The notes: generated from the letters alone by a model not told the origin. 64,000 nt of DNA from an uncultured Zetaproteobacteria bacterium (GCA_964503475.1 CAZCZU010000006.1:18610-82609); one strand, 5' to 3'. Counted from the stretch's first letter, positions 6,958 to 61,919 are shown. Numbers and translations: made by a program.

Positions 6958-7018
6958 GGAAGAGAGCGGAGGACAGGATGTACACAACAACAGAGGAAAA
7001 AGGTTAAGGAGGAAAACC

Positions 7019-10323: not shown

Positions 10324-10378
10324 TGTAACCTAACCCGCCCCAACTGAAAAAACACCTGCGAAACGCAAACGGCCGCAA

Positions 10379-40351: not shown

Positions 40352-40438
<87 letters not shown>

Positions 40439-40553
40439 CATGAATAAGGTCCGGCATACTGCCGGGCCTTTTCTTTTTAAGCCACCTGATTCGTCAAACT
40501 TCTTTTCTCAAGTATATACTTGGCCTTGTGTCCATCTCTTCGAGTATAGTCGC

Positions 40554-47527: not shown

Positions 47528-48469
47528 TCAGACGGCGGCGATGGCCTGTGAGCGCTTATGCAGCCAGCGGGTCATCCCCGCCGCCGTCAGGATGGCCCAG
47601 ACGGCGAACAGGGCGCCGGGCAGGGCCGCCACCGGCTCGAAGTGTTTCAGGGCCAGCATCACCCCCAGCCCCGCATTCTGCATGCCGATCTCGATGGTCA
47701 TGGTCACCTTGTGGGCGTAGTCGAACCTGCACAATCGGGCGATGGCGAAGCCGCCGAGATAGCCCAGCGTGCTGATGGCCACCACCAGCAAGAGAACAGA
47801 AACCGAGACCGAGGCAATGCGATCGGCATTGGCGGCGGTGACAAAGCCGACGATGAGCAGGATGGCCAGGGCCGCCACGCCGGGAGCGATCTGCTCCACC
47901 TGCGCCTGGTAGCGGGCTAACAGAGGCCTGAGCGCCATGCCGGCGATCAATGGGAGGACGACGGTGAGCAGGATGGTCTGCATCATCGGCCAGAAGGGGA
48001 TATGCAAAAAGGCGCCGCCAAGATACTTGACCAGCAGCGGAGTCAGCAGCGGCGAGAGCATCGTCGCCACCATGGTCATGGCGATCGAGAAGGCGACGGC
48101 CCCGCCGGCCAGATAGGTGATCACATTCGAGGCCATCGCCCCCGGCGCGCAGCCGACGATGACAAAGCCGAGTGCCAGGGCCGGCGGATAGCCAAGCGCC
48201 ACGACAATGGAGCCCGCAGCAAAGCCGAGCAGCGGCATGACGGTGAACTGGGTGGTCACCCCGATAGCGATGCGCCCCGGCTTTTTCAGTGCCGCTTTCG
48301 CCTCTTCCGGATGCAGCACCAGGCCGAGGGCAAACATCGTCGCCGCAAAGGCCCATTGAATGGCTGATTTGCTGAAGACCATAAACAGCGGCGGATAGAG
48401 GTAGGCCGCCACGGCCGCCACGATGGTGAGGAGAGCGAGATTGCCCGATAAAAAGCGCCATATATTCAT
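47528..48469 (-). CDS. Bile acid:sodium symporter (BASS/SBF) family transporter
   Basis: 313 aa polytopic protein. Pattern FALGLVLHPEE...GVTTQFTVMPLLGF...GCAPGAMASNVITYLAGG is typical of SBF-like carriers. Confidence 0.85.
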   Translation of the reverse strand: MNIWRFLSGNLALLTIVAAVAAYLYPPLFMVFSKSAIQWAFAATMFALGLVLHPEEAKAALKKPGRIAIGVTTQFTVMPLLGFAAGSIVVALGYPPALALGFVIVGCAPGAMASNVITYLAGGAVAFSIAMTMVATMLSPLLTPLLVKYLGGAFLHIPFWPMMQTILLTVVLPLIAGMALRPLLARYQAQVEQIAPGVAALAILLIVGFVTAANADRIASVSVSVLLLVVAISTLGYLGGFAIARLCRFDYAHKVTMTIEIGMQNAGLGVMLALKHFEPVAALPGALFAVWAILTAAGMTRWLHKRSQAIAAV

Positions 48470-48612
48470 GGGGGTGAATATCTACCCTACCCCACCCTTG
48501 CAGGCCATGGTCCATCGCTTTCATCGACTTGCAGTGATGGTATGTTTACCGCCTCAACAGGCAGGAAGGGTCAGTGACTTCCGTCATTCGTTTTCAAGGA
48601 TCAGCAGCACGC

Positions 48613-50085
48613 ATGTTTGAACAGACATTCCGCAATATCGATGACGTACTCTGGAAAGAGGCCGGCTGCACTACCGAGCTCGACTACACCGAGCAGACCT
48701 CATGGATGCTGTTTCTCAAGTACCTCGACGATCTGGAGCAGGAGAAGGCACAGCTCGCCGAACTGCACGGCAAGCCTTACACCTTTATCATCGACGAAGC
48801 GCACCGCTGGTCCAGCTGGGCGGCCCCGAAAACGGCCGACGGCAAATTCGATCACAACAAGGCGCTCACCGGCCCCGATCTGATCGACTACGTGGACAGC
48901 GAACTCTTCCCCTATCTCAAAGGCTTCAAGCAGCGGGCCACCGGGCCGGACACCATCGAATACAAGATCGGCGAGATTTTCGGCGAGATCAAAAACAGGT
49001 TCACCAGCGGCTATTCACTCAGAGATGCGCTGGAGCATATCGACGGCCTGCGCTTCCGCTCGCAGAAGGAGAAGCACGAGCTCTCCCACATCTACGAGGC
49101 GAAGATCAAAAACATGGGCAATGCCGGGCGCAACGGCGGCGAGTACTACACGCCGCGCCCGCTGATTCGCGCCATCATCCGGGCGGTTGATCCCAAAATC
49201 GGCGAGCGCATCTATGACGGCGCCTGCGGCTCGGCGGGCTTCCTCTGTGAGGCCCACGACTTTCTGAAATACGATGAACACGGAAAAGTACGCAACGGTT
49301 TAACCACCAGCGATCTGAAAACACTTCAGGCATCCACCTTCTACGGCAAGGAGAAGAAGAGCCTCGCCTACGTGATTGCCATCATGAACATGATCCTGCA
49401 CGGCATCGAAGCGCCCAATATCATTCACACCAACACCCTGGCCGAGAACATTGCCGATATTCAGGAGAAGGATCGCTTCGACGTGGTGCTCGCCAATCCG
49501 CCATTCGGCGGCAAGGAGCGCAAGGAGGTGCAGCAGAATTTCCCGATCAAGACGGGCGAAACCGCCTTCCTCTTCCTGCAGCATTTCATCAAGACCCTGA
49601 AGGCGGGCGGCCGCGCCGGCATCGTCATCAAAAACACCTTCCTGAGTAACACTGACAATGCCTCGGTGAGTCTGCGCCGCGAGCTGCTGGAATCCTGTAA
49701 TTTACATTCCATCCTCGATTGTCCGCAGGGCACCTTCCAGGGCGCGGGCGTGAAAACGGTGGTTCTGTTTTTCGACAAGGGCAGTGCCACGCGCAAGGTG
49801 TGGTACTACCAGCTCGATCCCGGAAGAAGCCTCGGCAAAACCAACCCGCTCAACGATGCCGACCTGGCCGAGTTCGTGGAGCTACAGAAATCGAAAGCCG
49901 ACTCCGACAAATCGTGGTTGGTGGACATCGCCGCTATCGATCCGTCCACCTTCGATCTTTCGGTGAAGAATCCGAACGGCGGTGAGGAAATCGACCACCG
50001 CGACCCGGCCGAGATCATGGCCGAGATCGCCGCCCTCGACAAAGAGAGCTCCGATATCCTGAACTCCATTAAGGCGCTGCTGTGA
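48613..50085 (+). CDS. hsdM: Type I restriction-modification system, DNA methyltransferase subunit HsdM
   Basis: HsdM_N-like N-terminus (FRNIDDVLWKEAGCTTELDYTEQTSWMLFLKYLDD). SAM motif IYDGACGSAGFL and catalytic NPPF (VLANPPFGG). An alternative GTG start at 48574 is possible. Confidence 0.92.
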   Translation: MFEQTFRNIDDVLWKEAGCTTELDYTEQTSWMLFLKYLDDLEQEKAQLAELHGKPYTFIIDEAHRWSSWAAPKTADGKFDHNKALTGPDLIDYVDSELFPYLKGFKQRATGPDTIEYKIGEIFGEIKNRFTSGYSLRDALEHIDGLRFRSQKEKHELSHIYEAKIKNMGNAGRNGGEYYTPRPLIRAIIRAVDPKIGERIYDGACGSAGFLCEAHDFLKYDEHGKVRNGLTTSDLKTLQASTFYGKEKKSLAYVIAIMNMILHGIEAPNIIHTNTLAENIADIQEKDRFDVVLANPPFGGKERKEVQQNFPIKTGETAFLFLQHFIKTLKAGGRAGIVIKNTFLSNTDNASVSLRRELLESCNLHSILDCPQGTFQGAGVKTVVLFFDKGSATRKVWYYQLDPGRSLGKTNPLNDADLAEFVELQKSKADSDKSWLVDIAAIDPSTFDLSVKNPNGGEEIDHRDPAEIMAEIAALDKESSDILNSIKALL

Positions 50086-51308
50086 AAGCTGGTTGGCAAG
50101 TTAAGCCGCTGGGTGATATGAGTCAGTTCCAGCGTGGTCTAACTTACTCAAAAAAAGACGAGGCTGACGCATCGGACAACGTTGTGGTGCGAGCTACGAA
50201 TATTGATTTGGAAACAAACCAACTCGATTTTTCAGAGTTGAAATATATCAGTGAAAAAATTGTCGTTCCTGTGGCTAAGAAGCTTAAAAAAGGGTCTTTG
50301 CTCATATGCACGGCGAGTGGCAGCAAAAGCCATTTGGGCAAGGTAGCTTTCATTGATGATGACTATGATTACTCCTTTGGTGGATTCATGGGGATGCTTA
50401 CCCCAAATGAAGACCTACTGCCAAGATACCTGTTTCACCTGATGACATCAGGGGGCTACAAGGATTTTATCGGGCAGCTTGCTGATGGTGCAAATATTAA
50501 TAATTTAAAGTTTGACGACCTGAAGCGATTTCATGTCCCATTCCCACCTATTGCCGAACAGCGGCGGATTGTGGGGATTCTGGATGAGGCATTCGAGGGC
50601 ATTGCCAAGGCGGTGGCCAATGCCGAAGCCAATCTGAAAAACGCCCGCGAACTCTTCGAAAGCCACCTCAACGCTATCTTCTCCAACCCCGGCCCCGACT
50701 GGACGGAGAATAAGTTCGGAGATATTTGCGACATCAAACACGGCTTTGCATTCAAGAGCGAATTCTTCGTCTCCAATAGCAAGCATGTCCTGCTTACTCC
50801 CGGCAATTTCTTTGAAGCTGGTGGATACCGTGATCGAGGTGATAAACAGAAGTTTTATGACGGGCCTATCCCCGATGGTTTTGTCTTGGAAAAAGGCGAT
50901 CTGTTAATTGCTATGACGGAGCAAGCTGCCGGTTTGTTGGGTAGCTCAATCATTATCCCTGAATCGGGTGTTTTTCTTCATAACCAGCGACTCGGATTAG
51001 TTGTGCCAAAAGAAGGTGTGCCTTGGGACAATAAGTTTTTCGCTCTCGTTTTTAATACTAAAGCGATAAGAAAAGCCATTCATGACGGTGCTTCGGGCGT
51101 AAAGGTCAGACACACATCACCCAAAAAGATTGCCAATATTTCGGTTTCGTTCCCTACATCAGTTGACGAACAACAAGCCATTGTCGCCAAGCTCGATAAA
51201 CTGGCTGCGGAGACGAAGCGGCTGGAGGCGATCTACCGGCAGAAGCTGGCGCTGCTGGCCGAGCTGAAGCAATCACTGCTGCACAAGGCTTTCAGCGGGG
51301 AGTTGTAA
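50082..51308 (+). CDS. hsdS: Type I restriction-modification system, specificity subunit HsdS
   Basis: 408 aa with two target-recognition domains separated by a conserved helix (PPIAEQRRIVGILDEAFEGIAKA) and a C-terminal conserved helix (EQQAIVAKLDKLAAE...LKQSLLHKAFSGEL). Overlaps the hsdM stop. Visibly lower GC. Confidence 0.9.
   Translation: MKAGWQVKPLGDMSQFQRGLTYSKKDEADASDNVVVRATNIDLETNQLDFSELKYISEKIVVPVAKKLKKGSLLICTASGSKSHLGKVAFIDDDYDYSFGGFMGMLTPNEDLLPRYLFHLMTSGGYKDFIGQLADGANINNLKFDDLKRFHVPFPPIAEQRRIVGILDEAFEGIAKAVANAEANLKNARELFESHLNAIFSNPGPDWTENKFGDICDIKHGFAFKSEFFVSNSKHVLLTPGNFFEAGGYRDRGDKQKFYDGPIPDGFVLEKGDLLIAMTEQAAGLLGSSIIIPESGVFLHNQRLGLVVPKEGVPWDNKFFALVFNTKAIRKAIHDGASGVKVRHTSPKKIANISVSFPTSVDEQQAIVAKLDKLAAETKRLEAIYRQKLALLAELKQSLLHKAFSGEL
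51264..51308 (+). repeat. Direct repeat copy 1 (the authentic hsdS 3' end)
   Basis: CTGAAGCAATCACTGCTGCACAAGGCTTTCAGCGGGGAGTTGTAA. It matches 52810-52854 with 2 mismatches, and the last 33 nt are identical. Confidence 0.9.
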
Positions 51309-51402
51309 ACCGTCAGTCCGAATTTTCATCCGACGGAAAAGCACAGTTGACGCAAAAAAAAGTATTTACCCGATTGGTAAATGCATTTAATGTACGCACA
51401 CG

Positions 51403-51732
51403 GTGGATGTATTCTTTTCAACCAATGACTTGAAGAAGCTATGCGAGAACAGGCGGGCAATGGAGCGTCAGTTTGGTAGCCCCTGTGCGAAGAAGCTGCG
51501 GCAACGGTTGTCCGATTTGTGCGCTGCCGAAACGCTGACTGATGTAGTGGCAGGCAGGCCACATCCACTGAAAAGAGATCGGCTGGGGCAGTTCGCACTG
51601 GATTTGCATGGCGGAACCCGGCTGGTGTTTGAGAGTGCGGATGATCCGATTCCGCATTTGGATGATGGAAGCATTGCGTGGCATGAGGTTACAAAAGTGC
51701 GCATCGTGTTTATTGGAGATTACCATGACTGA
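51403..51732 (+). CDS. higB: HigB-like (COG3549, plasmid maintenance killer) RelE-fold toxin
   Basis: 109 aa, GTG start. HPLKRDRLGQFALDLHGGTRLVFE...VRIVFIGDYHD matches the HigB-like pattern (HPLKG.R.G.WS.R...WR..F...V....DYH). The toxin-first order and 8-nt overlap with a HigA-type HTH gene also fit. Confidence 0.72.
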   Translation: MDVFFSTNDLKKLCENRRAMERQFGSPCAKKLRQRLSDLCAAETLTDVVAGRPHPLKRDRLGQFALDLHGGTRLVFESADDPIPHLDDGSIAWHEVTKVRIVFIGDYHD

Positions 51733-52807
51733 ACAAGTTGCAACCTTTGCGCCGGATTGGGTTTCCCCTCCCGGCGATACCATTCTGGACTTGCTGGAAG
51801 AGCGCGGCTGGAAGCAGACCGAGTTTGCCGAGCGCATCGGCTTCACCACCAAGCATGTAAATCAGATCATCAACGGCAAATCGGCGATCACTGAAGATGC
51901 GGCCATCCGGCTGGAGCGTGTGCTCGGTAGTACAGCTCGTTTCTGGATGAACCGCGAAAGCCAGTATCGTGAAGCCTTGGCCAGAGAGGCCGAACTGGAA
52001 GCGCTGGAAAACGATGTGGAATGGCTTACGGAAATCCCTGTCACGCACATGGTGAAGTGCGGATGGATGGCCAAATGCAAAAGCAAGCCTGCGCAGGTGG
52101 CCGAGGCGCTGAAGTTTTTCGGTGTTGCTTCGGTTCCTGCCTGGCGCAATCAGTATGCCGCACCACTTGCTGCGTTTCGTGCGAGCGACAAGTTCGAAAA
52201 AAAACCAGGCTATGTTGCAGCATGGCTTCGGTATGGCGAACGCTGTGCCGATGAAATTCGGACAGCGCCTTTCGACAAAGCCAAATTCAGAGCTGCTCTT
52301 GAAGAGCTGCGCGCATTGACCATCGAGTCCGATCCCGATGTGTTCATCCCAGCTTTGGTGGAAAAATGTGCGGCGGCTGGTGTAGCTGTCGTGTTTGCCC
52401 CCGCGCCGACTGGCTGTCCGGCTTCGGGCGCCACCAAGTGGGTCGATTCCGACAAGGCCTTGTTGATGCTCAGCCTGCGTCATAAGACGAATGACCACCT
52501 CTGGTTCTCATTCTTTCACGAGGCTGGGCATTTGCTGATGCATGGAAAGAAGATGCTGTTTATTGAGGGTAATGGTCTGGATGGTAAACAGGAAGATGAA
52601 GCCAATCAGTTTGCCGCCAATCTGCTGATCCCCAAACAATTCGAAGAACGATTGATGTTCGTGGGGCATACAGCGACTGCGATCCGGGCTTTTGCCAAAG
52701 AAGTAGGTGTGGCACCCGGCATTATCGTGGGCCGGATGCAAAACGATGGCCTTCTTGGATGGGGAACACCACTTAACAAATTGAAAGTTAGTTATCAATG
52801 GGCTTGA
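51725..52807 (+). CDS. HigA-type Xre HTH antitoxin domain fused to an ImmA/IrrE (COG2856, peptidase M78) metalloprotease domain
   Basis: Start ATG 51725. The N-terminus PPGDTILDLLEERGWKQTEFAERIGFTTKHVNQIINGKSAITEDAAIRLERVLGSTARFWMN is a HigA-family HTH. The C-terminal part carries HEXXH (FFHEAGHLLMH, codons at 52517-52531). Confidence 0.8.
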   Translation: MTEQVATFAPDWVSPPGDTILDLLEERGWKQTEFAERIGFTTKHVNQIINGKSAITEDAAIRLERVLGSTARFWMNRESQYREALAREAELEALENDVEWLTEIPVTHMVKCGWMAKCKSKPAQVAEALKFFGVASVPAWRNQYAAPLAAFRASDKFEKKPGYVAAWLRYGERCADEIRTAPFDKAKFRAALEELRALTIESDPDVFIPALVEKCAAAGVAVVFAPAPTGCPASGATKWVDSDKALLMLSLRHKTNDHLWFSFFHEAGHLLMHGKKMLFIEGNGLDGKQEDEANQFAANLLIPKQFEERLMFVGHTATAIRAFAKEVGVAPGIIVGRMQNDGLLGWGTPLNKLKVSYQWA

Positions 52808-52809
52808 GA

Positions 52810-52854
52810 CTGAAACAATCCCTGCTGCACAAGGCTTTCAGCGGGGAGTTGTAA
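52810..52854 (+). repeat. Direct repeat copy 2: an orphan duplicate of the hsdS 3' end (encodes LKQSLLHKAFSGEL-stop with no hsdS body upstream)
   Basis: CTGAAACAATCCCTGCTGCACAAGGCTTTCAGCGGGGAGTTGTAA begins 3 nt after the stop of the HTH-ImmA gene. The downstream flank also partly resembles the flank after the real hsdS stop (CCGTCA..GCACAGTT). Confidence 0.9.
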
Positions 52855-52944
52855 GCCCCGTCAAGCAGGCGCACAGTTCGCGGCAAGAAACCCCGCCTCA
52901 GGCCATGCGCCCCATGCGTACCCTCGGCGGGTTACTTTTTATCC

Positions 52945-53001
52945 AGCCCCCGGCACTACGCCCGCCACCCATCCGGCCCGGCCGAACCCGGGGGCGTTTT
53001 T
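52945..53001 (+). terminator. Possible rho-independent terminator after the orphan hsdS 3' end
   Basis: GCCCCCGG (52945-52952) pairs with CCGGGGGC (52988-52995) and is followed by GTTTTT. The loop is long, so confidence is low. Confidence 0.3.
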
Positions 53002-53109
53002 CACTCAGTTTATGTTCTGCCGAATTGATAAACCGTGAGTTGCTTTTCCCTCCGAAAAACAAACCGGTTATGGTGGTCATATTGAAGAATCGGGTGCTAT
53101 AGTTCTGCC

Positions 53110-54267
53110 ATGGAAAGGGTCGAGGCGATCAATCCCGATCGCTTGAAATGGTGTAGTGAGCAATACGGTATCGCGCTGGATGATCTGGCGCGGCAACTTC
53201 GTATCGCGCCTGAAACCATGGAAAAGGCCGTGAACGGCGAACCTGCCCTCACCTTCAACCAGCTCGAAAAAATCGCCAAATGCTTTAATCGCGGCATTCT
53301 GTTCTTTCTGGAAGAGGCACCCGTGAGCGAAGAGCAAGTCTTCTCTCCCCAGTTCCGTACGCTCTCCAGCCAGAAGACCGAGCTGACGCCCAATCTGAAA
53401 AACATCATTCAGCGCTTCGAAAAGCAGCGCGAAGGCTATATCGGACTGCTGGAGGATCTGGACGAACCAATCGACCGCCCCTGGCTGCCCGAAGGCATGC
53501 CCGACACAGGCAGAGGCAACATCAAGGAGACGGCCGCCTTTATTCGCTCCTGGCTCGGCATCGGGTCTCGTACCTCTTTCGAAGAGCTGCGCAGCGCCGT
53601 GGAGAGCAAAGGCATCCTAGTGTTCGTCTCCAATGGCTATCAGGGGCAGTGGAAGATCGCCAAGGAAAACCCGGTGCGCGGCTTCTCCATGTATTACGAC
53701 CACTATCCGGTGATCGTGATCAAAAAGCTGGATGCCAGGGCGGCCCAGACCTTCACGATGATTCACGAGCTCGGCCATCTGCTGCTGCACCGGGAAACCA
53801 TGCTCGATGAAGCAGACGATTTTTACAGCCATCAGGGGAAAGAGCGCGAGGCGAATGCCTTTGCCGGAAACCTGCTTGTCCCCGATGCATTTGTTCACAC
53901 CATCAACATGCGGGACTTTCCGTACGATACCGTCAGCGGCTATGACAATTACCTCAAAAGCCATGCAAGGCAGTGGGGTGTCAGTGTCGAGGTGGTTCTG
54001 CGGCGGTTGATGGATGAGGGGAGACTGGCTTCCGAGCATTACGAAGCCTATCGACAATGGAGGGCCGAACAGCCGGCGCAGGAAGCGGGTGGCGCTATGC
54101 GCTATCGCTACCAGGAACCGACCAATATGTTTGGTGACACATTCGTGCGCACCGTGCTCGACGCATACCACAGCGATCACATCACGCTCGCCAGAGCCAG
54201 CTCCTACCTCGACAACCTGAAGGTGGATTATATCCACGAGCTGGAAGCGAGATATGCACGCCTTTGA
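53110..54267 (+). CDS. HTH domain fused to an ImmA/IrrE (COG2856, peptidase M78 / DUF955) metalloprotease
   Basis: 385 aa. The N-terminus (LKWCSEQYGIALDDLARQLRIAPETMEKAVNGEPALTFNQLEKIAKCF) is Xre-like. HEXXH occurs as MIHELGHLLLH (53764-53778), with a downstream EREANAFAGNLLVP typical of ImmA/IrrE. Confidence 0.8.
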   Translation: MERVEAINPDRLKWCSEQYGIALDDLARQLRIAPETMEKAVNGEPALTFNQLEKIAKCFNRGILFFLEEAPVSEEQVFSPQFRTLSSQKTELTPNLKNIIQRFEKQREGYIGLLEDLDEPIDRPWLPEGMPDTGRGNIKETAAFIRSWLGIGSRTSFEELRSAVESKGILVFVSNGYQGQWKIAKENPVRGFSMYYDHYPVIVIKKLDARAAQTFTMIHELGHLLLHRETMLDEADDFYSHQGKEREANAFAGNLLVPDAFVHTINMRDFPYDTVSGYDNYLKSHARQWGVSVEVVLRRLMDEGRLASEHYEAYRQWRAEQPAQEAGGAMRYRYQEPTNMFGDTFVRTVLDAYHSDHITLARASSYLDNLKVDYIHELEARYARL

Positions 54268-54736
54268 TGCCTCATCGCTGATTCACGCTTGGGATAATTA
54301 TCCGATCGACAAATTCCCGCCGCTCTGGGAGTGGATGGCCGGGCAAATTCAGAGTGGAGACTTTGTCGTTTCAGAGGTCGCGTTGAAAGAGATCGGCAAC
54401 AAGGCACCCGAATGTGCTACCTGGCTCAAAGAGCAGGAAATCCAGAGGCTTCCTATGTCCAACGCGATTGCGCAGGAGGCCTTACGCATCAAAAGGCTGC
54501 TCGGCATCGAAGACGACCGGTATCATCCCAAGGGTGTGGGAGAAAACGATATCCTGATCATCGCCACCGCCAAAGTGCATGACCATACGCTTGTCACGGA
54601 GGAGGGATTTCAGGCTGTATTCCCCGCCGTGCCCGCCAAGAGTCGAATCCCGACCGTTTGCAACATGGGGGAGGTCCGTGTGGAGTGGTGCAAATTTATC
54701 GATCTTATCAAGGCAAGCGATGCCGTATTTTCCTGA
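54254..54736 (+). CDS. DUF4411-family protein (predicted PIN-like nuclease fold)
   Basis: 160 aa. The N-terminus FDASSLIHAWDNYPIDKFPPLWEWM and ENDILIIATAKVHDHTLVTEE match my recollection of DUF4411/PIN-like acidic motifs. 14-nt overlap with the preceding ImmA gene. Confidence 0.65.
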   Translation: MHAFDASSLIHAWDNYPIDKFPPLWEWMAGQIQSGDFVVSEVALKEIGNKAPECATWLKEQEIQRLPMSNAIAQEALRIKRLLGIEDDRYHPKGVGENDILIIATAKVHDHTLVTEEGFQAVFPAVPAKSRIPTVCNMGEVRVEWCKFIDLIKASDAVFS

Positions 54737-54790
54737 CCGATTTTTGATGGATACCACCCTCAACATGACCAAAGGCCTGCGAACGGTCGT

Positions 54791-54826
54791 TTTGTGTAAG
54801 GTGAAATCGAAAATACTTTACACAAA
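54791..54826 (+). promoter_or_regulatory. 9-bp inverted repeat upstream of hsdR (candidate operator or RNA hairpin)
   Basis: TTTGTGTAA (54791-54799) and TTACACAAA (54818-54826) are separated by 18 nt, 60 nt upstream of the hsdR ATG. Confidence 0.3.
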
Positions 54827-54886
54827 CGCCCTTGTGACTGGCGTACTTGATACAAACGTACAGATCGTTTCGGACTGCTCTGCCTC

Positions 54887-57247
54887 ATGTTGAACGAAGC
54901 CGAGACCCGAGCCGAACTGATCGACCCTGCCCTGCGCGAGGCGGGCTGGGGTGTGGTCGACGCAAGCCGTGTGCGCCGGGAATACATCACGCCGGGCCGC
55001 TTACAGGGAGCAGGAAGGCGCGCCAAGCCGGAGATTGCCGATTACGTATTGGTCTATCGCAATCGTAAGCTGGCGGTGATCGAGGCGAAGAAGCAGGCGC
55101 TGCCCTATACCGAGGGCGTACAGCAGGCCAAGACCTACGCCGACAAGCTGAATATCCGTTTTACCTACTCCACCAATGGCGAACGCATCTACGGCATCGA
55201 CATGGATACGGGGGAAGAGGGTGAAATCGAGCGCTACCCTTCACCGGAAGAGCTGTGGCGCATGACCTTCCCCGAAGAGAGCTCATGGCGCGATCGCTTT
55301 GCCGATGTGCCATTCGAGGACAAGGGTGGCACCTGGGAGGCGCGCTACTATCAGGAGAACGCCATCAATGCCGTGCTCAAGGCGGTCGCCGATGAGAAAG
55401 AGCGCATCCTGCTCACACTGGCGACAGGCACCGGCAAAACCTTCATCGCCTTCCAGCTGGCATGGAAACTGTTCCAGAGCCGCTGGAACCTGAGCAGGGA
55501 ACCATCGCGCCGCCCGCGCATTCTCTTTCTGGCCGACCGCAACATTCTCGCCGATCAGGCCTACAACGCCTTCTCGGCCTTTCCCGAGGATGCACTGGTT
55601 CGCATCGCGCCGGACGATATCCGCAAGAAGGGGCGCGTTCCCAAGAACGGCAGCATCTTCTTCACCATCTTCCAGACCTTCATGAGCGGCACGGATGAGC
55701 AGGGTGAACCGAGCCCCTACTTCGGCGAATATCCTCCCGACTTCTTCGATTTCATTGTCATCGACGAATGCCATCGCGGCGGGGCCAACGACGAATCCAC
55801 CTGGCGCGGCATTCTCGAATACTTCTCTCCTGCCGTACAACTCGGCCTGACCACCACACCGAAACGCAAGGACAACACCGACACCTACGCCTATTTCGGC
55901 GAGCCGGTTTATGTCTATTCGCTGAAAGAAGGCATCAACGACGGCTTCCTGACCCCGTTCCGGGTACGCCAGATCGCCACCACGCTGGATGAGTATACCT
56001 ACACCTCGGACGACACTTTGGTGGAGGGCGAGCTTGAGACCGGAAAGGTATACGAAGAGAAAGATTTCAACCGCACCATCGAGATCGAGGAGCGGGAGCT
56101 GTACCGCGTGCAGACCTTCATGCAGATGATCGATCAGCGCGAGAAGACGCTGGTGTTCTGCGCCAATCAGGGCCATGCAGCTCTGGTGCGCGATCTGATC
56201 AACCAGGCAAAGAGCCATAGCGATCCGAACTACTGTGTACGCGTGACCGCCAATGATGGTGAGCGAGGGGAAGAATATCTGCGTTTGTTCCAGGATAACG
56301 ACAAATCGATCCCGACCATCCTCACCACCTCGCAAAAACTCTCCACGGGCGTGGATGCACGCAATGTGCGCAATATCGTGCTGATGCGGCCGGTCAATTC
56401 GATGATCGAGTTCAAACAGATTATCGGGCGCGGCACTCGCCTGTTTGACGGCAAGGATTACTTCACCATTTTCGATTTTGTAAAAGCCCACAAACATTTC
56501 AGCGACCCGGACTGGGATGGTGAGCCTGATGATCCGGAGAACTGTCCTAAGTGCGGATGCAGGCCATGCCAGTGTGAAAAGCCGGAACCGAAACCATGCA
56601 AAATATGTGGAGCACAGCCTTGCATCTGTGTAAAGGAACCGCCAAGGAAGAAGGCGCGGGTGAAGTTGCGCGATGGTAAAGAGCGCTCCATCCAGCATAT
56701 CTCGATCACCACCTTCTGGGGGGCGGATGGCAAACCGCTCTCGGCATCGGAATTCCTTGAACTGCTGTTCGGGCAACTGCCGGAGTTTTTCAGGGATGAG
56801 GACGAACTGCGTGCGATCTGGTCGATGCCGGATACGCGCCACAAGTTGCTCGACGGGCTGGCCGAGAAAGGCTTCGGCAGAGAGCAGCTGCTGGAGATGC
56901 GCAAGGTGATCGATGCTGAGGACAGCGACCTGTTCGATGTGTTAGCGCATGTCGCCTACGCGCTACAGCCGCTGGCGAGGGTTGAACGAGCCGCCAACGC
57001 CAAGGAGAAAATCCACTCATCATTCGATGAAAAGCAGCAGGCATTTCTTGAGTTTGTGCTGAACCAGTATGTTTCCCTTGGCGTGGATGAGTTGGACCAG
57101 GAGAAGCTCGGAACGCTTCTGGAACTCAGATATCACTCGCTGGCTGATGCCATTGAGGAGCTCGGAAGGCCCGAAGAAATCAGGTCGATGTTTATCGGAT
57201 TCCAGAAATTCCTGTATGCCGAAGCATCTTCTTTGAACTCAAACTAG
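54887..57247 (+). CDS. hsdR: Type I restriction enzyme R subunit HsdR, type IB (EcoEI/EcoAI-like) architecture
   Basis: 786 aa. N-terminal PD-(D/E)xK nuclease (ADYVLV...VIEAKK), SF2 helicase motifs (LATGTGKT, VIDECHRG) and an EcoEI_R_C-like C-terminal domain (FWGADGKPLSASEFLELLFGQLPEFF...DLFDVLAHVAY). Confidence 0.9.
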   Translation: MLNEAETRAELIDPALREAGWGVVDASRVRREYITPGRLQGAGRRAKPEIADYVLVYRNRKLAVIEAKKQALPYTEGVQQAKTYADKLNIRFTYSTNGERIYGIDMDTGEEGEIERYPSPEELWRMTFPEESSWRDRFADVPFEDKGGTWEARYYQENAINAVLKAVADEKERILLTLATGTGKTFIAFQLAWKLFQSRWNLSREPSRRPRILFLADRNILADQAYNAFSAFPEDALVRIAPDDIRKKGRVPKNGSIFFTIFQTFMSGTDEQGEPSPYFGEYPPDFFDFIVIDECHRGGANDESTWRGILEYFSPAVQLGLTTTPKRKDNTDTYAYFGEPVYVYSLKEGINDGFLTPFRVRQIATTLDEYTYTSDDTLVEGELETGKVYEEKDFNRTIEIEERELYRVQTFMQMIDQREKTLVFCANQGHAALVRDLINQAKSHSDPNYCVRVTANDGERGEEYLRLFQDNDKSIPTILTTSQKLSTGVDARNVRNIVLMRPVNSMIEFKQIIGRGTRLFDGKDYFTIFDFVKAHKHFSDPDWDGEPDDPENCPKCGCRPCQCEKPEPKPCKICGAQPCICVKEPPRKKARVKLRDGKERSIQHISITTFWGADGKPLSASEFLELLFGQLPEFFRDEDELRAIWSMPDTRHKLLDGLAEKGFGREQLLEMRKVIDAEDSDLFDVLAHVAYALQPLARVERAANAKEKIHSSFDEKQQAFLEFVLNQYVSLGVDELDQEKLGTLLELRYHSLADAIEELGRPEEIRSMFIGFQKFLYAEASSLNSN

Positions 57248-57492
57248 CTAGGTACTGAAAAGGTCTCCTTCATCCAAGTGTAGAGCTGGACTGTGGTGAG
57301 CTCTTCGAGCGGGATATCCTCGAACGCATCGTGCGGATCCTGATCTCTTAAGCAGAACTGGTAGGTGACCACCTCGGGGGCATGATCGTGCATGATCAGC
57401 ATGGTGTAAGTCCCGGGGACATCATACTTAATTGGCCGCCAGCTTTGCATGGGGTATATCCCGGTATATACTTTCATCATGTTTGTCTGCAA
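57244..57492 (-). CDS. Hypothetical 82-aa protein; the C-terminal ~50 aa are paralogous to the ORF at 60009..60341 (copy A, chimeric N-terminus)
   Basis: LIMHDHAPEVVTYQFCLRDQDPHDAFEDIPLEELTTVQLYTWMKETF compared with LIMHDQAPEVVTYQFCLRDQDPFDEFEDMPLDELTTARLYTWMKETF. Its stop overlaps the hsdR stop through the CTAG palindrome at 57244-57247. It may be a pseudogene remnant. Confidence 0.4.
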   Translation of the reverse strand: MQTNMMKVYTGIYPMQSWRPIKYDVPGTYTMLIMHDHAPEVVTYQFCLRDQDPHDAFEDIPLEELTTVQLYTWMKETFSVPS

Positions 57493-57940
57493 GGTGATCG
57501 ATGCACTGGACCGGAATGATGTGCCCTACACCCTGGTCGGCGGCTATGCGCTGGTGCTGCATGGCGTGGTTCGCGGTACGGTCGACATCGATATCGCCAT
57601 CTCCCTTAATGCCGAGGTATTCAAGCGCTGTGAATCGGCGCTGCAATCGATCGGTCTTGCCCCCCGCCTGCCGGTGACCGCCGAAGAGCTGTTTCACTTC
57701 AGGGAGGAGTACATCGCCAGACGCAATCTGAAGGCGTGGTCGTTTCACAATCCCGCCAATCCGCTGGAGGTGGTCGACATCCTGATCACCGAAGATGCCG
57801 AAGCGATTGAAAGCGTCGATAAGCAGGCCTTCGGCAGGCATATCCATGTGGCGGCCGTGCCTGAACTGATCGCCATGAAACAGAAAGCGGGCCGGCCGCA
57901 GGACATCGAAGATATCAAGGCGCTGGAGCGACTGCTGTGA
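57479..57940 (+). CDS. Minimal Pol-beta-fold nucleotidyltransferase family protein
   Basis: Start taken at ATG 57479 (MFVCKVIDALDRNDVPYTLVGGYALVLHGVVRGTVDIDIAI, a GG..(n)..DxD NTase motif). The C-terminal LIAMKQKAGRPQDIEDIKAL motif is common in small NTase TA components. Confidence 0.65.
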   Translation: MFVCKVIDALDRNDVPYTLVGGYALVLHGVVRGTVDIDIAISLNAEVFKRCESALQSIGLAPRLPVTAEELFHFREEYIARRNLKAWSFHNPANPLEVVDILITEDAEAIESVDKQAFGRHIHVAAVPELIAMKQKAGRPQDIEDIKALERLL

Positions 57941-58191
57941 GGCCGGTGCAATACTTTTCCGACGCATACCTTGAGCAGTGCAGGCATGTAACGCCTGAGC
58001 AGGCGCTCACCTTTCTGGAAGAGTTTCGCCTGCTGCAGCAGCCCGGCAAAGCAGCCCCATCCAAGCTGATCAGCCTGAAGGTGCCCGAACCGCTGCTGGC
58101 CGCCTTCCGCCAACGCTGCGACAACGAAGGAATCAAATACCAGACCCAAATCAAACAGCTGATGCAGGAGTGGCTGATCACGCCCCTCTGA
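57937..58191 (+). CDS. Small ribbon-helix-helix / BrnA-like (CopG-type) protein
   Basis: 84 aa. GTG start overlaps the NTase stop (GTGA). The C-terminal KLISLKVPEPLLAAFRQRCDNEGIKYQTQIKQLMQEWL resembles the BrnA/CopG-like antitoxin pattern (I.L..P..LL..FK......G..YQT.I). Confidence 0.5.
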   Translation: MRPVQYFSDAYLEQCRHVTPEQALTFLEEFRLLQQPGKAAPSKLISLKVPEPLLAAFRQRCDNEGIKYQTQIKQLMQEWLITPL

Positions 58192-58208
58192 ATGCCTGGC
58201 ACGCCACC

Positions 58209-58404
58209 TTAATCGGCAGCTGAGAAGCGCTCCTTCATCCAGGTGTAGAGCCGGGCGGTGGTGAGCTCATCCAGCGGCATATCCTCGAATTCGTCGAAGG
58301 GATCCTGATCTCTGAGGCAGAACTGGTAGGTGACCACCTCGGGGGCCTGATCGTGCATGATCAACAGGATGCGCTTGCCCGTTTTCAGGCAGTCGATGGT
58401 GATG
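58209..58404 (-). pseudogene. 3' fragment (copy B) of the small ORF found intact at 60009..60341
   Basis: 58231-58404 is identical by eye to 60030-60203 (174 nt), and homology ends abruptly at 58404. Reading upstream in frame reaches a TAA with no start codon, so the fragment is non-coding. Confidence 0.85.
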
Positions 58405-58460
58405 ATCGGTGAATTTCGCCGAAATATGGCAGCTTGTTAAACCGACAGGGGCTCCGGGGC

Positions 58461-58489
58461 TTGAATAAACGTCTCACCTGTTCCAATAT
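58461..58489 (+). promoter_or_regulatory. Sigma-70-like promoter candidate for abiEi
   Basis: TTGAAT (58461-58466), a 17-nt spacer, then CAATAT (58484-58489). It lies 30 nt upstream of the abiEi ATG. Confidence 0.4.
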
Positions 58490-58518
58490 GTAGGTACTTA
58501 TGCATAAAGGCCGACGTT

Positions 58519-59139
58519 ATGGAACATGGTGGCGATACAAAAAGCGCAACTGAACAGATCTTTGCCCTGCTGAAAAAAGAGGGTGTGCTGCGCCCTCGCG
58601 ATCTTGAGAAGCATCAGATTCCACGCCAATACCTGAGTCTCCTGTACCGGCGCGGTCTGCTGGAGCGCACGGCACGTGGTCTCTATATCGCGGCCCATGC
58701 TGAACTATCCGAAAAGCAAACGATTGCCGAAGTGAGCAAGCGCATTCCCAAGGGGCGCATCTGCCTGCTCTCTGCACTCGTGGTGCATGAAATCACTACC
58801 CAATCACCGTTTGAGGTGTGGATAGCCATTGATAAGAAGGCGCGTCTGCCGCAGGTGAAGGACCTGCCGGTCAGGATTGTGCGCTTCTCCGGGGTGGCGC
58901 TTGATGAGGGCTTTGATTACCGGAACATCGATGGGGTGAAGGTGCCTGTTTATAACGCAGCCAAGACCGTGGCCGACTGCTTCAAATACCGGAACAAGAT
59001 TGGTCTGGATGTGGCTATCGAAGCACTGAAAGATGGATGGCGTGAGAAGAAGTTCACCATGAGCGAACTATCGAAATATGCTGAGGTCTGCCGGGTAAAG
59101 AAGGTGATGCAGCCCTATCTGGAGTCGCTGGCGCTATGA
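58519..59139 (+). CDS. abiEi: AbiEi-family type IV toxin-antitoxin antitoxin / transcriptional regulator
   Basis: 206 aa with an N-terminal wHTH (IFALLKKEGVLRPRDLEKHQIPRQYLSLLYRRGLLERTARGLY) and an AbiEi C-terminal domain. 4-nt overlap with abiEii. Confidence 0.85.
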   Translation: MEHGGDTKSATEQIFALLKKEGVLRPRDLEKHQIPRQYLSLLYRRGLLERTARGLYIAAHAELSEKQTIAEVSKRIPKGRICLLSALVVHEITTQSPFEVWIAIDKKARLPQVKDLPVRIVRFSGVALDEGFDYRNIDGVKVPVYNAAKTVADCFKYRNKIGLDVAIEALKDGWREKKFTMSELSKYAEVCRVKKVMQPYLESLAL

Positions 59140-60005
59140 GTCAGCAATCAAATATCACTGCATCCATCCGCGCCAGGTTGCTCAACCGGTCACGACAAGA
59201 GAGAACAGATTTTCAGCGAATGCTTACCAGTTACGGGCTGGAGCGATTGCTCTATCGCCTTTCGGTTTCTGCATACCGGGATGAGTTTGTGCTCAAGGGA
59301 GCGATGCTCTTCTCCTGCTGGAGTGGCGATCTCTATCGCGCCACCAGGGATGTCGATTTTCTCAAGATGGGTGAGGCGTCCATGGCCTATCTTGGGCAGG
59401 TGTTTGCTGATCTGTGTGAGCAGGCCGTCGAGCCTGATGATGGATTAGTGTTCGACAAGGCATCGATCAAGGTGGCCGAGATCAGGGAAGAGGACTCCTA
59501 CGGCGGTATCCGGGTGACGATGAAGGCCACGCTGGGGAATGCGCGAATGCCGATTCAGGCGGATATCAGCATCGGCGATGCCATCACTCCGGCAGCAGGG
59601 GAGATCGAGTTCCCTACCCTGCTTGAAATGCCGGCACCGAAACTGCGCGCCTACCCGGTGGAAACCGTGATTGCCGAGAAATTTGAGGCCATGGTCTCTC
59701 TGGATATGGCCAATAGCCGGATGAAAGACTTTTACGATATTTGGGCCATCCGGAAGTTTATGCAGCCTGATCCGAAACTGCTGGCCGAAGCAGTTGCCAA
59801 TACATTCAGGAGAAGAGGAACAGAGCTTCCCTCTGATGTTCCCACGGCTTTGACGGATGCTTTTTCCAAAGATGAAAGCAAACAGAAACAGTGGGAGGCT
59901 TTTGTGAAGCGCGCAGGAGTCAGCCATAGTGCAACTTCGACACTGCATGAAACGGTTGAAGCGATCAGGCCATTCTTGATGGATGCGGCAGTTCCGGGGA
60001 CATAA
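59136..60005 (+). CDS. abiEii: AbiEii/AbiGii-family nucleotidyltransferase toxin (DUF1814)
   Basis: 289 aa. N-terminus SIRARLLNRSRQERTDFQRMLTSYGLERLLYRL, then FVLKGAMLF...TRDVDFL (NTase motif) and DFYDIW. Confidence 0.88.
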   Translation: MSQQSNITASIRARLLNRSRQERTDFQRMLTSYGLERLLYRLSVSAYRDEFVLKGAMLFSCWSGDLYRATRDVDFLKMGEASMAYLGQVFADLCEQAVEPDDGLVFDKASIKVAEIREEDSYGGIRVTMKATLGNARMPIQADISIGDAITPAAGEIEFPTLLEMPAPKLRAYPVETVIAEKFEAMVSLDMANSRMKDFYDIWAIRKFMQPDPKLLAEAVANTFRRRGTELPSDVPTALTDAFSKDESKQKQWEAFVKRAGVSHSATSTLHETVEAIRPFLMDAAVPGT

Positions 60006-60008
60006 TAC

Positions 60009-60341
60009 TTAATTCGCTGCTGAGAAGGTCTCCTTCATCCAGGTGTAGAGCCGGGCGGTGGTGAGCTCATCCAGCGGCATATCCTCGAATTCGTCGAAGG
60101 GATCCTGATCTCTGAGGCAGAACTGGTAGGTGACCACCTCGGGGGCCTGATCGTGCATGATCAACAGGATGCGCTTGCCCGTTTTCAGGCAGTCGATGGT
60201 GATGGCATCGGCCGGGATGCCGCGCTTGCGCATATGCTTGTTCACCCCGATCAACGGATCGATCTTCTCGAAATCGCGCTGGATATCGGCCTGGGCTGCG
60301 GTGGCCCGCTCGTAGACCTGGGTTAACGGTGTCTGCGTCAT
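60009..60341 (-). CDS. Hypothetical 110-aa protein of unknown family (copy C, intact)
   Basis: Intact ORF whose stop lies 3 nt from the abiEii stop. Two further partial copies in the island (57244.. and 58209..) share its C-terminal half. I recognised no family motifs. Confidence 0.6.
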   Translation of the reverse strand: MTQTPLTQVYERATAAQADIQRDFEKIDPLIGVNKHMRKRGIPADAITIDCLKTGKRILLIMHDQAPEVVTYQFCLRDQDPFDEFEDMPLDELTTARLYTWMKETFSAAN

Positions 60342-60467: not shown

Positions 60468-60623
60468 ATGGAAACAGAAGAGCAGCAGAAACGGGGCATG
60501 CCCCTGGGCGCCAAGGTGTTTATCGGGGTGCTGATCCTCGTCTTTATCCTGGTCGGCCTCGAGATGGTGGTGACCACCATGTTCATCGACAAATTCGCCC
60601 CGGCCGCCAGGCACAGCCACTAA
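60468..60623 (+). CDS. Candidate 51-aa single-TM small membrane protein
   Basis: ATG 60468 is preceded by GGAGG (60458-60462). Translation: METEEQQKRGMPLGAKVFIGVLILVFILVGLEMVVTTMFIDKFAPAARHSH-TAA, with one clear hydrophobic helix. Below the ORF-track length cutoff. Confidence 0.35.
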   Translation: METEEQQKRGMPLGAKVFIGVLILVFILVGLEMVVTTMFIDKFAPAARHSH

Positions 60624-60655: not shown

Positions 60656-60691
60656 TTGACATTCCTTATTCCGGAATCCAGAATAAGGAAT
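60656..60691 (+). promoter_or_regulatory. Promoter with an embedded palindromic operator upstream of the wHTH gene
   Basis: TTGACA (60656-60661), a 17-nt spacer, then CAGAAT (60679-60684). A perfect 11-bp inverted repeat ATTCCTTATTC (60661-60671) / GAATAAGGAAT (60681-60691) spans the spacer and the -10. A GAGGTG SD precedes GTG 60706. Confidence 0.5.
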
Positions 60692-60705: not shown

Positions 60706-61215
60706 GTGGAACTCAAGGCTCTGGATCTTTATGTGGCACTGAAACTGGTCGTTCTCAGAAACGAACCATGCGCCATGCAATCGATCGGCGAAGCTCTGGG
60801 CATGAGTGCCTCCAGGGTACACGCCTCCATCCACCGGCTGATCAAGGCCAGGCTGGTACGCAAGGACAAGGGCTACAAACCCATTCTGGCCAATCTTAAA
60901 GAGTTTATCGTGCATGGTGCCGCCTTCGCCTTTGTACCGGAAATTGGTGAGCCGACACGTGGGCTGCCGACGGCATCGTTTGCCCCACCTCTTGAGCAGG
61001 CATTTGTCGATTCGGGAGCGCTGCCGCATGTCTGGCCCGACCCCGAAGGAGAGGTGCGCGGCATCTCCTTTTCGCCACTGCACAAGGCCGCTCCCAAGGC
61101 AGCCCGCAAAGACCGGGAACTGTACGAACTGCTGGCCCTGGTGGATGCCATCCGCGGTGGCCGGGCCCGGGAGAAGCGGATGGCAATCGAGATCATCAGC
61201 CAAAGGCTCACCTGA
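60706..61215 (+). CDS. Winged-helix (MarR/AbiEi-like) DNA-binding protein, putative antitoxin/regulator
   Basis: 169 aa, GTG start. The N-terminal ALDLYVALKLVVLRNEPCAMQSIGEALGMSASRVHASIHRLIKARLV is wHTH-like. Its stop is 1 nt before the ATG of the NTase gene. Confidence 0.55.
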   Translation: MELKALDLYVALKLVVLRNEPCAMQSIGEALGMSASRVHASIHRLIKARLVRKDKGYKPILANLKEFIVHGAAFAFVPEIGEPTRGLPTASFAPPLEQAFVDSGALPHVWPDPEGEVRGISFSPLHKAAPKAARKDRELYELLALVDAIRGGRAREKRMAIEIISQRLT

Positions 61216-61216
61216 G

Positions 61217-61919
61217 ATGATCGCGCACGATCCGAACATCGACATACTGGAGATGGCCGTCGGGGGCTCGGCCCGCTCATCCACGAGGTGGTCTTTCTCG
61301 GCGGCTGTGCGACGGGCCGCTGATCACCGATCCGGCCGCCCCTCTCATTCGCGAGACCAACGATGTGGATGTGATTGTCGAGATTGCCAGCCGTCACGAT
61401 TATCACCTGCTGGCGGAGAAGCTGCGCCGGCTTGGTTTGAAGGAGGACACGCGCGAAGGGGCTCCGCTCTGCCGTTGGCTGTACCGCCGGGTCGCTGTCG
61501 ATGTGATGCCAACAGATAGTGCCATCCTGGGCTTCAGCAATCGCTGGTATGGCGATGCCATGCGCAGCGCAACGCCTGTTCGGTTACCCGGTGGCGCAGA
61601 GATACAGCTTGTCGCCGCGCCCTATTTTCTGGCCACCAAACTGGAAGCCTTTCATGGCCGGGGAAGGGGTGACTACATCATCAGCCATGACCTGGAAGAC
61701 CTGATCGCCGTCGTCGATGGCAGGGCTACGATCTCAGAAGAGGTGCAGGCTGCCCCGGAGGCGCTGCAGGCATACCTGGCGGAAGCATTCGCACATCTGT
61801 TGGCCAACGACACCTTTCAGGATGCCATTCCAGGCTATCTGCCGGGAGATGCCGCCAACCAGGCACGGGTCCCAACGCTCCTTGAGCGTATGGGGCGGAT
61901 TGCAAACCTGAACGGATAA
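61217..61919 (+). pseudogene. Pol-beta-fold nucleotidyltransferase gene with two frameshifts in its first ~35 codons
   Basis: Three frames join to give MIAHDPNIDILEMAVGG / GLGPLIHEVVFLGGCATG / LLITDPAAPLIRETNDVDVIVEIASRHDY... The first shift lies in the G5 run at 61262-61266, the second near 61317-61320. The GG...DVD NTase motif straddles the shifts. The long ORF 61365..61919 is the remainder. Confidence 0.7.

Follow-up and report, generated by a model that had tools for sequence, protein, structure and literature searches.

Partial copies of a small conserved gene at the seams of a zetaproteobacterial defence island

Why should pieces of one small gene lie between the modules of a bacterial defence island? 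The question is raised by a 64,000-nt stretch of DNA from an uncultured Zetaproteobacteria bacterium (GCA_964503475.1 CAZCZU010000006.1:18610-82609), which we call the window and whose positions are counted from its first letter. In it an intact 110-aa gene, here named X, stands at one edge of a block of restriction-modification (R-M), toxin-antitoxin (TA) and abortive infection (Abi) genes, and two shorter copies of its 3' part lie further inside. The original prediction had proposed that this repeated open reading frame (ORF) behaves as a cassette boundary or recombination substrate, or else encodes a shared accessory factor of the neighbouring modules. We hold with moderate confidence that the two shorter copies, A and B, are non-functional 3' fragments of X, left as scars by the serial insertion of TA/Abi cassettes at the 3' end of the gene through host homologous recombination on a tail of X that the cassettes carried.

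The repeated gene end

The intact minus-strand ORF that had been read as copy C was confirmed and is X itself. A gapless repeat finder aligned copy B with the 3' part of X over 197 nt at 97% identity, which far exceeds chance, and this alignment includes the 174 nt (58231-58404 and 60030-60203) previously reported to be identical. None of the 135 nt of codons 59-103 differ between the two copies, as against 5 of 21 nt in codons 104-110. Homology ends abruptly at 58404/60204, between codons 46 and 47 of X, and the only start codon left to copy B is an internal TTG, again as first described. Copy A (57255-57401) matches C at 87-88% and B at 86-87% identity over 144-147 nt, slightly above the earlier estimate by eye of about 85%. 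It lies within an 82-codon ORF (57244-57492) whose first ~30 codons are indeed unrelated to X and overlap the 5' region of a nucleotidyltransferase (NTase) gene. All three copies have the same orientation, and the 174-nt repeats, being direct and identical, are an obvious substrate for deletion or exchange of the intervening AbiE module as had been proposed.

Each copy also meets a plus-strand unit tail to tail. The end of hsdR (57247) overlaps the stop of copy A (57244) through the sequence CTAG, the end of abiEii (60005) lies 3 nt from copy C (60009), and the end of the ribbon-helix-helix (RHH) gene (58191) lies 17 nt from copy B (58209), a spacing that had been given as 18 nt. Between each X fragment and the end of the adjoining gene, 4-19 nt of the downstream flank native to X are preserved. 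The 21-nt junction motif found between abiEii and copy C, and again beside copy A, extends to 31 nt at 87% identity (57409-57439 against 59990-60020). Read directly, the joint between the remnant A' and copy A contains the microhomology CGGG, and that between copy B and the adjoining u region contains CCGAT..CAT. No structured RNA, terminator or tRNA was found at the repeats, which have no Rfam match, and inspection of the 31-nt motif for a dif/Xer-like site gave by eye a weak match of a XerC-arm-like half only. The possibility that the spacer between copy B and abiEi is a diverged continuation of the 5' part of X was discarded, as alignments of the u region were no better than those of shuffled sequences.

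X is a conserved gene that belongs to no recognised family, in agreement with what had been said of its protein. It has no match in Pfam, NCBIfam or PADLOC, and a word-indexed search of 5.8 billion proteins returned 19 clusters only. A full profile search gave 69 representative clusters, several of which are 3'-only fragments. When each species was represented by a single genome, a scan recovered relatives in at least 245 of them, namely marine Gammaproteobacteria (Neptuniibacter, Neptunomonas, Reinekea, Porticoccus, Kangiella and others) and Zetaproteobacteria (Mariprofundus, Ghiorsea). Neighbourhoods were examined in 80 species loci. X is single-copy in 78 of the 80, the exceptions being L015, which is described below, and L014, which has a partial 5' duplication. 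The genes around it vary from locus to locus and are mostly ordinary ones outside defence, which answers in the negative the earlier question of whether homologues of X are always convergent with TA or defence genes. AlphaFold2 predicts a compact alpha/beta domain (predicted local distance difference test score, pLDDT, 90) in which five strands are accompanied by two helices, at residues 5-23 and 95-107. A fold search of the PDB with this model returned nothing below E = 0.03, the best partial likeness being to a Mediator subunit domain. With no family match and no convincing PDB analogue, the idea that a known fold or family might hint at a role for X was set aside. As judged from sequence and gene context, X is a conserved chromosomal gene and not a defence-associated protein. 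In copies A and B (codons ~59-110 and 47-110) the N-terminal helix and two strands of this model are missing, and it is therefore improbable that either would fold.

Copies B and C carry different natural ends. The tail and flank of copy C, ending AAN before the stop and continuing with GTATTATGTCCCCGGAA (GTATT after the stop), match the X allele of L087, which ends GN before the stop and continues with GTATTGAGTCCTTGGAA. The tail and flank of copy B, ending AAD before the stop and continuing GGTG..GCATTC, resemble the allele of L088. By these alignments the two tails are two different natural alleles of X, one L087-like and the other L088-like, and the remnant A' has a tail and flank of the L087 type. 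Because codons 47-103 are identical while the tails belong to different alleles, the B/C pair is a recombination mosaic and not the random decay of a duplicate made in situ. The 17-19-nt flank is native to X, since it also follows the X stop in L087, where no abiEii homology is found beyond the X tail and flank; the X flank therefore also encodes, on the other strand, the end of abiEii (four codons and the stop). Consistent with this, the C-termini of AbiEii homologues are variable after IRPFLM. Differences between copies A and C fall 4, 4 and 10 times at the first, second and third codon positions; this lean, a count that is not significant, suggests divergence under selection.

An independent parallel to this architecture exists in another genus. 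In L015, from the isolate Mariprofundus sp. KV, X (10001-10348) is followed by convergent genes for AbiEii (10400-11335) and AbiEi_3 (11322-12098) and then by an X fragment (12287-12492) of 206 nt, 91% identical to X and covering codons 40-108. The arrangement is unambiguous, because the repeats are 91% identical and the isolate genome has a nominal coverage of ~240x. The AbiE proteins of L015 are barely alignable with those of the window, the two antitoxins being from different Pfam subfamilies. The u regions of the two loci share a 29-32-nt promoter-like segment whose alignment score was matched in 0-1 of 2000 shuffles. They also share a 15-nt hairpin-like motif, CGGCGAAAWWCRCCG, which among 88 loci occurs only in L001, L015 and L086, at an equivalent place adjoining the displaced X fragment (58407-58421 in the window, 12221-12235 in L015 and 130-144 in L086); the pattern was derived from these same sequences, so that its weight comes from the lack of matches elsewhere. 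In the window the motif reads CGGCGAAATTCACCG and occurs once. Together, motif and segment could act as an operator or insulator or have a part in recombination. The fragment-adjacent element is seen for a third time in L086, which is related to L015. Two further metagenome sequences hold 3'-only X fragments with unrelated DNA upstream, starting at codon ~43 in L084 and at codon 58, next to rne, in L085.

An unoccupied site is available for the island as a whole. In L088, a short contig from a close relative whose X is 75% identical at the amino-acid level, X is followed by a 138-nt spacer and then by the SBF-family symporter gene (822-1167 against 48492-48147 of the window; 85% nt and 92% aa identity), and homology with the window resumes at 48492. 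Since X adjoins the SBF gene in L088, the region between them in the window is, by this comparison, an insertion of 11.5 kb. In other Zetaproteobacteria the genes behind X are likewise often defence genes, namely hsdR with a DUF262 gene (L016), a 71%-identical HigA-M78 gene with hsdR (L045), NERD and DpnI-like genes (L006), and a PDC-M21 pair with the C-terminal part of hsdR (L009). Several others have a housekeeping aminopeptidase gene directly after X, and the DNA downstream of X is thus a variable spot in this group.

Table 1. Positions in the window of X, its partial copies and the island they lie in
Feature	Coordinates	Strand	Description	Basis or remark
X	60009..60341	-	intact 110-aa conserved gene, no function assigned; target gene with its 3' part duplicated (copy C)	ORF
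x3C	60008..60204	-	3' part of X (codons 47-110 and stop), repeated as copy B	repeat family D1
x3B (copy B)	58208..58404	-	displaced 3' fragment of X (codons 47-110); putative pseudogene fragment or scar	repeat family D1
x3A (copy A)	57244..57403	-	putatively older 3' fragment of X (codons ~59-110)	87-88% identical to C
A'	57409..57439	-	31-nt remnant: last 3 codons and stop of X with the d19 flank	repeat family D2
d19	59990..60008	.	native 3' flank of X	flank also follows the X stop in L087
u region	58405..58518	.	between copy B and abiEi; hairpin-like motif, promoter-like segment, palindrome
AbiE cassette	58519..60005	+	abiEi (58519-59139, AbiEi_4) and abiEii (59136-60005), 4-nt overlap	PF13338 6e-8, PF08843 2e-48
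NTase-RHH cassette	57479..58191	+	DUF6036-type nucleotidyltransferase and RHH/CopG-like protein	Pfam PF19502 5e-7
Inserted defence island	48493..60008	.	hsdM, hsdS, two HTH-M78 peptidase genes, PIN/DUF4411 gene, hsdR, two cassettes
SBF-family symporter gene	47528..48469	-	conserved flank on the far side of the island	Pfam PF01758; orthology to L088

Proposed insertion behind X and the alternatives

The arrangement can be accounted for if the 3' end of X is one edge of a defence-island hotspot that reaches to the SBF symporter gene. We infer that every incoming cassette would have brought a tail of its own, ~160-200 nt from the end of X, joined to it originally by illegitimate recombination. 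A single crossover in the shared tail, made by host homologous recombination, would then place the cassette directly behind an intact X and displace the earlier tail outward, giving the order X, AbiE, x3B, RHH-NTase, A'/x3A, hsdR. The event could have been a Campbell-type insertion or the transfer between related strains of a segment that was already duplicated, and the same repeats would allow the AbiE module to be deleted and exchanged. The likely order of acquisition is the type I R-M block, then NTase-RHH, then AbiE, because the most recent insertion would adjoin the intact gene. Host homologous recombination is favoured because the repeats are long, the fragments differ in their limits, the junctions contain microhomologies, there are signs of gene conversion and no integrase is present. 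L015 and L086, which have homologous u regions, fit such conversion in that their X homology begins 15 nt apart, and conversion between X and a fragment would account for the 174-nt identity in the window.

The suggestion that X marks cassette boundaries or serves as a recombination substrate is thus borne out in part. The empty site in L088, the parallel in L015 and the allelic tails all point to scars at the seams. A general boundary element X is not, given that close AbiE homologues lack an X fragment and that the type I R-M block has one at one side only. That homologues of X lie mainly among non-defence genes and are seldom repeated tells against the accessory-factor idea and does not touch the idea of recombination scars.

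Several observations weigh against insertion on a carried tail. X has no match in plasmid or phage collections, and no vector is thus recorded. The full pattern of X, AbiE and fragment recurs in only one (L015) of ~80 other species loci. No genome was found that lacks the AbiE cassette alone or the NTase-RHH cassette alone, and the mobility of individual cassettes is accordingly hypothetical. AbiE pair homologues at 65-77% identity are common in Mariprofundaceae, and the close ones in L089-L092 have no X fragment nearby and sit in type I R-M operons or integrase islands; as judged from these relatives, the AbiE lineage of the window does not generally travel with an X tail. There is no break in divergence between the 5' part of X and the repeated part relative to L087 or L088, and in these alignments the import of a foreign x3C is invisible outside the last seven codons. 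Two scans of metagenome contig DNA, one degenerate and one exact, returned nothing, so no circular form was seen. The history of the 31-nt remnant A' needs extra deletions. Finally, a RecA-dependent Campbell-type insertion of non-replicating circles is plausible, yet no route of this kind is documented for such cassettes in these bacteria.

Other possibilities were considered and rejected. Carriage of X or its tail by a plasmid, phage or viral contig found no plasmid or phage match, and the sole IMG/VR match is a full-length X at a contig edge without an X fragment or AbiE. Population variants or an excised form were not seen, the metagenome scans being empty and the contigs from other samples being identical and breaking at the repeats. 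Close AbiE homologues do not always travel with an X tail, as L089-L092 are without one. A mosaic break inside intact X relative to L087 and L088 was not seen except in the last seven codons.

Among the other explanations, a serious rival is that the same scars were made by site-specific recombination, though we consider it rather unlikely. Here the cassettes would be integrase-less, cis-mobilizable elements that accreted in tandem, with attL and attR sites holding the 3' end of X, a core in the stretch coding for GIPADxxTIDCLK, and an integrase acting in trans from elsewhere in the genome or from a lost element. Elements that accrete in tandem at the 3' end of their target gene (PMC5704250, PMC3146451) have this same architecture, and so has prophage e14 in icd (PMC13626634). 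Four 5' limits of fragments fall within eight codons (46/47 in copy B, 39/40 in L015, 43/44 in L084 and 44/45 in L086), two more fragments begin at codon ~58 (copy A and L085), the N-terminal-only fragments P0068 and P0069 end at codon 47, and the conserved hairpin-like motif adjoins the fragment in both of the otherwise unrelated AbiE cassettes. Against this, no integrase lies in or beside the island, and the only tyrosine recombinase in the 64 kb scores as XerD/XerC. The limits are not identical, even in the related L015 and L086, and the junctions show microhomology and not a shared core. Because the junctions of copy B, L015 and L086 may descend from a single ancestral one, leaving about two independent breakpoints, the clustering is not statistically compelling. 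ORF callers that begin at Met47 moreover inflate it in protein data. As proof of a site-specific core the clustering was down-weighted on these two grounds.

A second alternative, to which we give little credence, is segmental duplication in situ by unequal exchange or replication slippage at microhomologies beside a recombination-prone island, followed by gene conversion that kept the copies similar; the cassettes would never have carried an X tail, and the fragments would have had no role in movement. The complete identity of B and C over 174 nt, the microhomologies, the lack of an individual empty site for either cassette and the existence elsewhere of AbiE homologues without X fragments would all be expected on this account. 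It does not explain why B and C end in the tails and flanks of two distinct natural alleles instead of being mutated copies of each other, nor why the layout of X, AbiE and fragment recurs in another genus with a different AbiE subfamily and a similar non-coding segment. The third-position lean of the A/C differences, though not significant, also goes against it.

An artefact of assembly seems very improbable. The true state would then be a chromosome in which X directly follows the RHH gene, together with a separate ~1.8-kb circle, an excised or extrachromosomal unit of AbiE plus an X tail, or else a population mixture. The exact 174-nt repeat is probably longer than short-read assembly k-mers, contig L094 from another sample (100% identical to 49220-60204) ends exactly at the repeat end 60204, and contig L002 begins inside copy B; the linear order of B and C accordingly rests on the assembler's resolution of the repeat. 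Against an artefact stand L001/L093, which has the same full linear order, and L094, which comes from a second sample, agrees up to 60204 and spans the RHH gene through copy B into AbiE. The analogue in L015, with its 91%-identical repeats and deep nominal coverage, is not open to the same doubt, and copy A is too diverged to be affected.

That the fragments work as truncated paralogues of X or as antisense elements, with a shared accessory or regulatory role in the adjoining modules, can practically be dismissed: the ORF of copy A is annotated by gene callers (P0019), its substitutions are partly conservative and every fragment is convergent with a module's last gene, but copy B has no usable start codon, part of a compact single-domain fold is absent from both fragments, the N-terminal extension of copy A overlaps the promoter and 5' region of the NTase gene, there is no PADLOC or Rfam match, and the single-copy homologues of X live mostly in non-defence contexts.

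The island and its surroundings

Read along the plus strand, the SBF gene (minus strand) is followed by hsdM, hsdS, a HigA-like helix-turn-helix (HTH) gene with an M78 peptidase, an RmrA-like HTH-M78 gene with a PIN/DUF4411 gene, and hsdR. From hsdR the order continues with copy A, NTase and RHH, copy B, AbiEi_4 and AbiEii, and X on the minus strand; past X lie a 51-aa membrane ORF, the PDC-M21A/B pair and a DUF498 gene. GC content is 0.48-0.58 inside the island and 0.61-0.67 in its flanks. Between hsdS and hsdR, at 51608-54736, are the two HTH genes with M78 (ImmA/IrrE-type) peptidase domains and the PIN/DUF4411 gene; within this type I R-M operon the HTH-M78 genes resemble PD-Lambda-2_B (6e-28) in one case and RmrA (1e-22) in the other.

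The two cassettes behind X are two-gene modules. In the one next to X, AbiEi, a winged-helix-turn-helix (wHTH) antitoxin, and the nucleotidyltransferase AbiEii are encoded in one operon, as expected of an AbiE type IV TA/Abi system. Its u region contains a promoter-like segment (58458-58486) and an imperfect 28-nt palindrome (I1, 58479-58526) across the abiEi start codon, weakly similar to sequences upstream of the AbiEi_4 homologues in L090 and L091; the palindrome is probably the AbiEi operator, as predicted from its position and these similarities. In the other cassette the NTase gene runs from 57479 or 57449 to 57940, behind a promoter-like site at 57444-57472, and the RHH/CopG-like gene from 57937 to 58191; the RHH protein matches CopG and BrnA antitoxins below the curated cut-off.

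No recombinase or integrase is encoded within 48.5-62 kb. The only recombinase in the window is a XerD-like tyrosine recombinase, 7 kb beyond the island and beside a tRNA-Leu gene, which scores 321-332 bits to XerD and tyrosine-recombinase models and 125 bits against an integron-integrase cut-off of 265; as the sole candidate for an integrase serving the cassettes, it was rejected. The tRNA-Leu(CAG) gene (40352-40438) overlaps the first ~50 nt (~17 codons) of the recombinase ORF (40389-41450), within its ~60-codon 5' extension. Because the family match begins at residue ~63, the true start is probably further downstream.

On the 5' side of X, a 51-aa ORF (60468-60623) is divergent from X; it has one predicted hydrophobic helix and no family match, and is called in a JGI contig. 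Next comes PDC-M21A/B (60706-61919), a candidate defence pair of a wHTH protein and an AbiEii-like NTase (PADLOC 1e-39 and 3e-52). A 15-nt inverted repeat at 60656-60691 (ATTCCTTATTCCGGA / TCCAGAATAAGGAAT, 93% complementary) overlaps a promoter-like TTGACA-17-CAGAAT upstream of PDC-M21A and is likely to be an autoregulatory operator, a candidate on sequence grounds. Homologues of the pair, at 72% and 58% identity, lie at 10579-11861 in L009, a Ghiorsea metagenome-assembled genome (MAG), on the 3' side of its X copy and are followed by the C-terminal part of hsdR; the X copy there begins at ~codon 15, and its first start codon is Met37 (numbered as in the window's X, codon 37). Three NTase-type two-gene modules thus surround X in the window, and L015 has a fourth kind (AbiEi_3/AbiEii) at the same position.

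Relatives show further arrangements around X. In L010 (Mariprofundus sp. OFTM13) a 336-aa gene lies convergently downstream of X and clusters with an ORF of L015 that looks Fic-like by eye. It is flanked by ~30-50-nt direct repeats of the X downstream flank (628-720 and 1922-1975), and from this layout may be another repeat-bounded cassette at the same spot. In L014, a Cellvibrionales MAG, the 5' untranslated region and first ~30 codons of X are duplicated ~1.5 kb upstream of X (1241-1368 against 2843-2970; 128 nt, 77% identical), a different kind of partial copy. The proteins P0068 and P0069, from other metagenomes, match X over residues 1-47 only and then run into unrelated sequence, in one case a histidine-kinase ATPase domain (by eye), with a breakpoint near the codon that limits copy B. 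The viral contig with the IMG/VR match (L095, UViG_2571042360_000001, 1-9228) contains a filamentous-phage-like region with a Zot-like ATPase and a replication-initiator-like protein (by eye), then an ATP-dependent DNA ligase-like gene and finally X at the contig edge.

Known systems and the meaning of the locus

This type of scar is familiar; what is unusual here is that the cassettes are very small, integrase-less TA/Abi units and that the target gene had not been noted before. The closest likeness is prophage e14 in icd of E. coli. According to PMC13626634 (with Hill et al. 1989 as cited there), a replacement 3' end keeps icd intact, the displaced C-terminal fragment icdC forms a direct repeat at the far end of the element, and excision or recombination between the two copies yields chimeric alleles. 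In e14 (and phage 21) as at X, an element occupies the 3' part of a protein gene and a displaced fragment remains as a direct repeat. In contrast, the prophage e14 is 15 kb long, encodes an integrase and is excised on SOS induction, whereas the X units are 0.8-1.6 kb long and consist of a TA/Abi pair without an integrase; e14 has two copies of the repeat and the X array three in series. The duplicated segment of icd is ~165 nt long, as compared with 160-206 nt in the X fragments.

Arrays downstream of a single-copy gene, each unit bounded by a direct repeat of the gene's 3' end, are also known from the ssrA islands of Dehalococcoides and from the accretion of cis-mobilizable elements (CIMEs) among streptococcal integrative and conjugative or mobilizable elements. 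Newer insertions adjoin the intact gene there, and some units without integration genes are read as CIMEs (PMC3146451, PMC5704250). The repeats of those arrays are ~20-30 bp, and at least some units have a matching integrase; the X array has repeats of 160-200 nt, a protein gene as its target, units that all lack an integrase, and limits that vary from unit to unit. Of the features of an att-flanked island, direct repeats of the gene's 3' end with the intact gene at one end are present (x3B, 197 nt at 97%; x3A, ~147 nt at 87-88%) and a matching integrase is absent from the 64-kb window. The unoccupied site concerns the whole 11.5-kb island (L088), and the 5' limits of the fragments cluster at codons 40-47 and ~58 without being identical.

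The locus also resembles defence-island hotspots between core genes, in that a variable low-GC block (type I R-M, HTH-M78/PIN, NTase TA, AbiE and PDC-M21) is missing in a close relative. To our knowledge, such hotspots are usually described without duplicated flank fragments between systems, whereas here partial copies of one flanking gene mark the seams. Integrons, including chromosomal integrons with TA cassettes, offer a further likeness in their small units, with or without a promoter, stacked in one orientation at a fixed platform, and TA modules are common cargo in them. The X array differs in having no IntI and in being bounded by copies of the 3' end of a host gene and not by attC sites, for which no search was made. 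It is tempting to go further and to see the AbiE and NTase cassettes as integrase-free mobile units that insert, stack, swap and delete through host homologous recombination, each with ~200 nt of 3' sequence from a conserved host gene as a "portable homology arm" and with a conserved adjacent non-coding segment. X would then be an integron-like platform without an integrase, and the segment common to two genera with unrelated AbiE systems would be the conserved frame; we regard this extension as speculative and rather improbable.

Were insertion on a carried tail of X mistaken, the copies would be ordinary pseudogene fragments in a recombination-prone region. If it is correct, the seams of a defence island would be readable from leftover pieces of the flanking gene, giving the order in which its systems were acquired, and tiny TA/Abi modules could be added, removed and exchanged at a fixed chromosomal site without a recombinase of their own. 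The turnover of defence islands is mostly ascribed to elements that bear an integrase or to double crossovers within the core genes on either side, and a route through a carried tail of the target gene would be a modest but useful addition. It would also add X, an uncharacterised and widely conserved small gene of marine Proteobacteria, to the sites that flank defence islands in Zetaproteobacteria.

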